DNA from: Polyangia bacterium
GTDB lineage: Bacteria > Myxococcota_A > Polyangia > Palsa-1104 > JAEUJZ01
Reading direction: 5' to 3'
Assembly: GCA_041908565.1 (NCBI GenBank)
Contig: JAYRFD010001269.1
Span: 1-16,577 of the forward strand
DNA length: 16,577 bases
The notes beneath the pieces are model-generated. The model did not search any database, was not told the origin of the DNA, and saw nothing but the letters and a program-made list of their open reading frames with translations. This document shows, piece after piece, positions 9,595 to 9,646 of this stretch. The position numbers and the translations under genes were made by a program. Numbering within the stretch: the first letter of the stretch is position 1; every line of letters starts with the position of its first letter.

Positions 9595-9646
9595 GCAAGG
9601 TCTGCGCAGAAAGCAAGGTCTGCGCAGAAAGCACGGTCTGCGCACC
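9595..9646. repeat. Tandem 18-bp direct repeat (2 full copies plus 1 degenerate), each containing the perfect 10-bp palindrome TCTGCGCAGA. It sits in the MVP-kinase intergenic region.
   Basis: 'gcaaggTCTGCGCAGAaa' at 9595-9612 is repeated exactly at 9613-9630. A degenerate third copy 'gcacggTCTGCGCAcc' lies at 9631-9646. The repeat starts 16 nt after the MVP TAA (9577-9579) and ends about 90 nt before the kinase start. Confidence 0.75.

Follow-up and report, generated by a model that had tools for sequence, protein, structure and literature searches.

The MVP–Kinase Intergenic Region

The window, by which we mean the whole stretch of 16,577 nucleotides analyzed here, is one complete NCBI contig and has a G+C content of 64%. 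An MVP homolog of 974 amino acids is encoded on the forward strand at 6655–9579, with its TAA stop codon at 9577–9579, and was found to match the Pfam families MVP_shoulder (7e-21), Vault_3, and Vault_4. The named relatives nearest to this protein are from Polyangium, Byssovorax, and Minicystis, at ~60% identity, and a search of the literature on vault proteins of myxobacteria found nothing. The next gene on the same strand encodes a STAND-type Ser/Thr protein kinase with Pkinase, AAA_16, and MalT-like TPR domains; it ends at 13466 and begins at either 9693 or 9738. The initial annotation had called these two genes MVP and kinase, and by their Pfam domains both calls are right.

The true start of the kinase is likely the ATG at 9738. 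The N-terminal sequence MxxxDxxxxGxRYELRxRLGAGGMGEV is conserved from this codon onward among the kinase orthologs. The database gene call, P0121 (1219 amino acids), is 23 codons shorter than the kinase from ATG 9738, and together with the calls for the orthologs at the related loci L129 and L130 it begins inside the kinase glycine loop, ~22–23 codons late. Judging from the compared N-termini, all three of these gene calls are probably too short.

Between the two genes lies a tandem repeat at 9595–9644 with a period of 18 bp, 2.8 copies, 96% matches, and a score of 93 in Tandem Repeats Finder. A separate repeat search resolved three in-register 18-bp units on the forward strand that span 9595–9648, and the 18-bp tandem repeat previously described after MVP was confirmed by both methods. 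Unit 1 (9595–9612, GCAAGGTCTGCGCAGAAA) contains a 13-bp box at 9595–9607 and the perfect palindrome TCTGCGCAGA at 9601–9610. Unit 2 (9613–9630, again GCAAGGTCTGCGCAGAAA) is 100% identical to unit 1, with its box at 9613–9625 and its palindrome at 9619–9628. Unit 3 (9631–9648, GCACGGTCTGCGCACCGT) is degenerate, with 72% identity; its box is located at 9631–9643, and its palindrome is truncated to TCTGCGCAcc, which retains 8 of the 10 positions. These identities bear out the earlier description of two exact units and a degenerate third, whereas the heading of that description, which promised three perfect palindromes, has to be reduced to two perfect copies and one imperfect copy, as its own text had already admitted. 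The repeat does not follow the MVP stop codon directly, as had been stated; the array begins 15 nt past the TAA.

Within the 16.6-kb window, the array at 9595 is the only exact tandem duplication of at least 9 bp, and it is therefore no chance feature. The palindromic 10-mer gave two matches in the window at no more than one mismatch, compared with 1.45 expected, and is without excess once the repeat itself is set aside.

Other repeats were observed elsewhere in the window. Eight copies of the hexamer GCCGAC/GCCAAC (13496–13544) are found just 3′ of the kinase stop codon, within a 174-amino acid ORF that has no Pfam match, and a 23-bp repeat of 2.5 copies (14033–14089) occupies the spacer 5′ of the gene for an M2 (angiotensin-converting-enzyme-like) peptidase. 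Two tandem 20-bp units at 5017–5057 lie between the gene for PBP1 and the convergent minus-strand gene for RlmL, which stop at 5022 and 5051, respectively. Each of these units is a hairpin, CTGAAT-N4-ATTCAG (fold z = −4.15), and the pair constitutes the second tandemly duplicated palindromic unit in the contig. A single clean hairpin unit is present at the PBP1/RlmL junction of the related locus L120 (4170–4200), and the hairpin units at 5017–5057 are probably a bidirectional terminator.

A −10-like hexamer, TACGAT (9726–9731, forward strand), is located exactly 6 nt before the kinase ATG. The arrangement TAYGAT-N6-ATG was found in six of six kinase loci (the window, L124, L125, L126, L129, and L130), and no Shine-Dalgarno sequence is conserved among them. 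Leaderless genes are known from other GC-rich bacteria. The retention of TAYGAT-N6-ATG in all six orthologs suggests that the kinase mRNA is leaderless and would start at the A of the ATG (9738), with TACGAT as the −10 element. TACGAT has no recognizable −35 partner, and a generic sigma-70 promoter scan of 9000–10300 returned 0 sites, which would fit an activator-dependent promoter.

Distribution and Conservation of the 13-bp Box

The repeat is absent from the MVP orthologs at loci L120–L123, whose proteins are 89–93% identical to that of the window (93% for L120 and L121, 90% for L122, and 89% for L123, which is truncated to 718 amino acids). The genes for a glycosyltransferase, PBP1, and RlmL upstream of MVP are common to the window, L120, and L121; L123 retains RlmL alone in this position, and the L122 contig begins just before MVP. 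The synteny of the window with L120–L123 breaks exactly at the MVP stop codon, and four distinct genes are found 3′ of MVP: the STAND kinase, a 604-amino acid protein, an FHA-sigma-54 activator, and DUF2177. Hairpins unrelated to that of the window follow the MVP stop codon in L120, where the hairpin is strong (z = −3.1), and in L122, where the stem is long and not significant relative to shuffled sequences (z = −1.3). An ancestral adjacency of MVP, a 600-amino acid gene, and the kinase was considered and rejected; the downstream protein of L120 is unrelated to the upstream protein of L126.

The kinases of L125 and L126 are 73% identical in amino acid sequence to that of the window and 89% identical to each other, and both are located behind an unrelated 587-amino acid gene. 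Upstream of the kinase, each of these loci contains GCACCCTCTGCGC-N5-GCACAGTCTGCGC. In the MAFFT alignment, GCACCCTCTGCGC falls on unit 2 and GCACAGTCTGCGC on unit 3, with an 18-column gap opposite unit 1. Counted from the ATG, the TCTGCGC motifs of the window begin at −137, −119, and −101 and those of L125 and L126 at −120 and −102, and the distance from box to ATG is thus kept within 1 nt. The boxes of the window are identical to those of L125/L126 at 11 of 13 positions (unit 2) and 12 of 13 positions (unit 3). The 5-nt spacer between the boxes varies (AGAAA, CCGCA, GCTCA), and the remainder of the intergenic spacer aligns poorly. The third-codon-position identity between the kinase genes of the window and L125 was determined to be 56.6%, which we read as near saturation at such a high GC content.

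A search of related loci totaling 131.7 kb gave eight occurrences of the box GCA[C/A]NNTCTGCGC, seven of them in the kinase arrays and one in a coding region. The frequency of TCTGCGC in the same loci is ~0.34 per kb per strand, and from this rate we estimate at ~1e-5 the chance that a 140-bp spacer would contain two of these motifs exactly 18 bp apart. Because the boxes are located 5′ of kinases that have a different upstream neighbor, and none is found 3′ of the MVP orthologs, the array, on this comparison of loci, belongs with the kinase gene and not with MVP.

The copies in L125 and L126 (TCTGCGCCCG, TCTGCGCGCT, and TCTGCGCGAT) are not palindromes. The right arm, AGA, that completes the 10-bp palindrome is confined to units 1 and 2 of the window and is missing from unit 3, L125, and L126; dyad symmetry is not conserved in the regulatory regions of these two orthologs. 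With copies that are not palindromic, it is the direct-repeat box that has been conserved, and not the hairpin: as judged from the aligned sequences, conservation extends to a 13-bp direct-repeat box, GCA[C/A]-NN-TCTGCGC, in an 18-bp phase, but not to a dyad or an RNA helix. The initial annotation had argued for an operator from the palindromes, and that argument fails, since the AGA arm belongs to the two youngest units of the window. Because units 1 and 2 are identical, the third unit and the AGA arm are recent in the window. By the alignment, unit 1 is an extra, recent duplicate of unit 2, and the ancestral array had two boxes.

No box was found at L124, which carries the closest kinase ortholog (80.6% amino acid identity), or at L129 and L130 (56–58%), and the element is therefore dispensable. 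The conservation of the box rests on two independent lineages. The kinase identities pair the window with L124, and L125 with L126, a grouping under which L124 has lost boxes that are ancestral. In the spacer 5′ of the L124 kinase, an 11-bp tandem repeat, AATCGGAATGT, of ~3.5 copies (2345–2395) extends from the LigB stop codon; it occupies the place of the 18-bp repeat of the window and is unrelated to it in sequence. We also considered whether the kinase might be the cargo of a mobile cassette with the boxes as its terminal repeats. In none of the three loci that have the array (the window, L125, and L126) does a box in either orientation occur 3′ of the kinase gene, and the idea was therefore rejected.

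Wider searches were conducted in genomes and metagenomes. Genome contigs were scanned for two palindromes 4–20 bp apart, which gave at least 119 matches; among the matches listed, an unrelated family from Bacteroidales, with its two palindromes 12 bp apart, dominates, and there is no homolog of the array. The only myxobacterial match at 18-bp periodicity among those listed, L028, was rejected, as it lies inside a low-complexity coding region. Pairs of TCTGCGCAGA exactly 12 bp apart are strongly over-represented, making up 47 of the ~130 matches listed (L001–L119), and are found mostly in Bacteroidales, Prevotella, and Alloprevotella MAGs, often several per genome, which points to an unrelated dispersed repeat family of Bacteroidales-type genomes. 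Metagenome contigs were scanned for GCAMNNTCTGCGC-N5-GCAMNNTCTGCGC, and 99 loci were obtained. In 98 of these the match falls within a reading frame that stays open for at least 120 codons, and these matches look like coding repeats with a period of six amino acids. The single metagenome locus with kinase similarity, L143 (31% over 207 amino acids), was rejected as no ortholog. None of the 99 loci has MVP similarity, and neither further homologs nor any sign of a regulon was found among them. In the 131.7 kb of related loci, the box is limited to the kinase arrays plus one coding match, and within these loci and the matches listed from the wider scans a dispersed repeat family finds no support. 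A literature search for TCTGCGCAGA gave unrelated papers, with none on bacterial gene regulation.

RNA Folding and Alternative Explanations

As RNA, the two perfect palindromes can pair with each other (9601–9610 with 9619–9628) to form a perfect 10-bp stem with an 8-nt loop and a free energy of −17.5 kcal/mol (z = −5.0; 0 of 200 shuffled sequences as good). A composite stem-loop that is specific to the window spans 9582–9643 on the forward strand (−28.6 kcal/mol, z = −3.2; 2 of 200 shuffled sequences as good). Its lower helix joins CGCAGUCGU (9582–9590) to ACGG.UCUGCG of unit 3, and the same fold is obtained in a wider context. There is no U-tract 3′ of the stem, where AAAGCACGG comes next, and a terminator scan returned nothing on the forward strand. 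The initial annotation had dismissed a hairpin terminator because the stems were too short and a U-tract was lacking. The second of these points holds, but the first does not, since it overlooked the 10-bp stem that the two palindromes make together. The small structured RNA that had also been proposed is without support: no Rfam matches were found in the window, and the fold is not conserved in the orthologs. The folds of L125 and L126 are weak (z = −1.2 and −1.9) and are unlike each other and that of the window. The potential CGCAG/CTGCG stem of L125 reads CTCAG/CTGCG in L126, with no compensating change. Because the stem is broken in L126 without compensation and the folds differ, recognition of sequence is favored over recognition of structure.

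It is unlikely that the array serves primarily as a terminator or insulator, with a stem-loop that ends or stabilizes the MVP transcript and shields the kinase promoter from read-through. Hairpin terminators without a U-tract are often assumed for GC-rich bacteria, the energies and z scores of the 10-bp stem and of the full helix are those of a stable structure, and the helix or stem begins 3–22 nt past the MVP stop codon. The different hairpins of L120 and L122 occur at the same position after the stop codon, so that one seems expected there, and the window offers no other hairpin for MVP. The U-tract is nevertheless missing, and the hairpin needs both the AGA arm, which is specific to the window, and the extra unit. 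The direct repeats of L125 and L126 cannot pair in this manner, neither locus has a significant fold, the two folds are dissimilar, and the one spacer change breaks the potential stem without compensation. A terminator would account for the recent palindromic version of the array, but not for the conserved sequence of the box, its phase, or its distance to the kinase ATG. As a likely secondary effect, the hairpin of the window may provide the MVP transcript with a 3′ stem-loop, stopping or stabilizing it. A neutral origin, in which the array is a slippage-prone microduplication (VNTR-like) and its likeness to L125/L126 reflects ancestry without selection, is improbable as well. Short tandem duplications are common in the intergenic DNA of this lineage, and the third copy alone therefore says nothing about function. 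The identity of units 1 and 2 marks the duplication as recent; other intergenic tandem duplications are found at 5017–5057, at 14033–14089, and at 2345–2395 of L124, and L124 itself, with the closest kinase ortholog, has lost the boxes. However, when the kinases are 73% identical as proteins and 56.6% identical at third codon positions, an unselected spacer should not keep boxes that agree at 11–12 of 13 positions, nor their 18-bp phase, nor their distance to the ATG to within 1 nt; the intervening and flanking bases have diverged. Neutral microduplication accounts for the third unit, but not for conservation across ~73% protein identity.

The remaining alternative is that the array is a sigma-54 enhancer (UAS), with half-sites of the Nla28/PilR type that activate the kinase gene from ~100 bp upstream; we regard this, which is a narrower form of the regulator-site reading given below, as quite improbable. 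Nla28, an NtrC-family enhancer-binding protein of M. xanthus, has the half-site consensus CT(C/G)CG(C/G)AG, and the M. xanthus pilA sites are arranged as GTGCGCAC-N10-ATGCGTAG (PMC9765219). The layout in the window is CTGCGCAG-N10-CTGCGCAG-N10-CTGCGCAC, with the same N10 spacing as in pilA. The copies of CTGCGCAG at 9602 and 9620 match the Nla28 consensus at 8 of 8 positions and CTGCGCAC at 9638 matches at 7 of 8, and the window thus holds at least two tandem 8-bp half-sites near CT(C/G)CG(C/G)AG that are no more than 25 bp apart. The location of the array 95–143 bp upstream is typical of sites for enhancer-binding proteins, and genes for sigma-54 activators are present at the related loci L122 and L130. 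Against these points, no −24/−12 element was found between the boxes and the ATG (9646–9737) in a search for TGGCACG-N4-TTGCW with up to three mismatches. The lone match, TGGCACA-N4-TGGGT at 9743–9758, is intragenic and has no −12 GC, and L124–L126 do not conserve it. The orthologous 8-mers of L125/L126 (CTGCGCCC/CTGCGCGC and CTGCGCGA) match the Nla28 consensus at 6 of 8 positions, and the conserved bases extend 5′ (GCAC-NN-T) and not 3′ (AG) of the Nla28 8-mer. At up to two mismatches, the consensus has 54 matches per kb in the window and is not discriminating. The conserved TAYGAT-N6-ATG, in addition, indicates a promoter of the sigma-70 type. The array may work like an upstream activator site, as the analogy with pilA suggests, but it is not classifiable as an Nla28 site or as a sigma-54 enhancer.

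At L130, one perfect CTGCGCAG was observed at 3767, ~168 bp 5′ of the true ATG of the kinase ortholog with 58% identity, and a histidine kinase and an NtrC-type sigma-54 activator are encoded as a pair at 10003–11708, 2.3 kb 3′ of that kinase. These two observations hint, though weakly, at a connection with enhancer-binding proteins.

A Predicted Control Element and Its Relation to Known Systems

We predict that the boxes of the array are where a regulator of the kinase gene binds, and we put the chance of this at about even. Among the points in its favor, the boxes remain identical at 11–12 of 13 positions despite a third-position identity of 56.6%, and tandem half-sites are bound by activators in a related group (M. 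xanthus). Of the three options offered by the initial annotation, an operator for the kinase promoter is the best fit, in that the boxes go together with the kinase gene; it departs from the proposal in that the boxes do not overlap the promoter. The boxes are located from −143 to −95 relative to ATG 9738 and neither overlap nor adjoin the −35/−10 region or the start, the −10-like hexamer being at 9726–9731. Against the prediction, sites ~100–140 bp upstream are distant for an activator of the sigma-70 type. The 18-bp phase corresponds to ~1.7 helical turns, and successive sites are not on one face of the DNA. No regulator gene was found linked to the array.

In the mechanism that we propose, the phased 13-bp boxes 95–143 bp 5′ of the kinase start would be part of the 5′ control region of the kinase gene. 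The tandem boxes would be occupied by a regulator that binds DNA sequence-specifically and is probably an upstream activator, acting on the kinase promoter; we infer both the binding of this protein and the direction of the regulation. The promoter would consist of the −10-like TACGAT 6 nt before the ATG and would give rise to the putative leaderless mRNA. A slipped-strand duplication of one 18-bp unit would have converted two boxes to three in this contig recently. In the duplicated unit, the box is followed by AGA, and this completes the 10-bp palindrome; the pairing of two identical palindromes into a stable hairpin just 3′ of MVP would be a side effect. A more specific version of this scheme can be drawn, in which the array is an upstream control element (GCAC-NN-TCTGCGC, 18-bp phase, ~100–140 bp from the start) for a predicted activator that is possibly EBP-like yet works without a recognizable sigma-54 promoter on a leaderless kinase gene in uncultured Polyangia-like bacteria, where slippage between two and three units would tune expression and, in this contig, the vault transcript would obtain its 3′ hairpin from the same sequence. 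The combination of all of these elements is speculative, and we doubt that it is correct in every part.

To our knowledge, almost nothing is known about the regulation of STAND-type Ser/Thr kinases of the myxobacterial kind. If the boxes bind a regulator, they would provide a concrete cis-element for one of the many myxobacteria-like kinases of this class and could be used as bait for finding the transcription factor. The locus also carries a lesson: the eye-catching perfect palindromes are young and not conserved, and it is the plain direct-repeat box that appears to have been kept by selection.

Among known systems, the array resembles the Nla28/pilA sites in its tandem GC-rich 8-mers (xTGCGCAx) in clusters of 2–5, its spacing of 8 + 10 = 18 bp, its location ~100 bp or more 5′ of the gene, and its probably myxobacterial host. 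It differs from them in that there is no sigma-54 promoter, the box GCAC-NN-TCTGCGC is shifted 5′ of the 8-mer, and the kinase gene has a sigma-70-like −10 hexamer directly before the ATG. The operator of a dimeric helix-turn-helix repressor would share the two perfect 10-bp dyads in phase within an intergenic region 5′ of a gene; in the present case, however, the dyad is not conserved, the sites lie 95–143 bp upstream and off the −35/−10 region, and the 5-bp half-sites are shorter than those of typical operators. As in a rho-independent terminator, a stable GC-rich hairpin is found just past a stop codon, at a position where MVP orthologs carry hairpins of their own. Unlike such a terminator, the hairpin of the window lacks a U-tract, is specific to the contig, and arose from a recent duplication, and the ancestral element cannot form it. 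The PIP/hrpII boxes (TTCGC-N15-TTCGC, AraC-type) and the OmpR/PhoB-type boxes are direct-repeat activator sites with periods of 20–22 or 11 bp. The array has in common with these the short conserved direct repeats, the fixed spacing, and the fixed distance from the promoter, but its motif is a different one, its period is 18 bp, and it is located much farther from the promoter. The array is a new motif in a familiar kind of element, and the understanding of such systems is unchanged by it.
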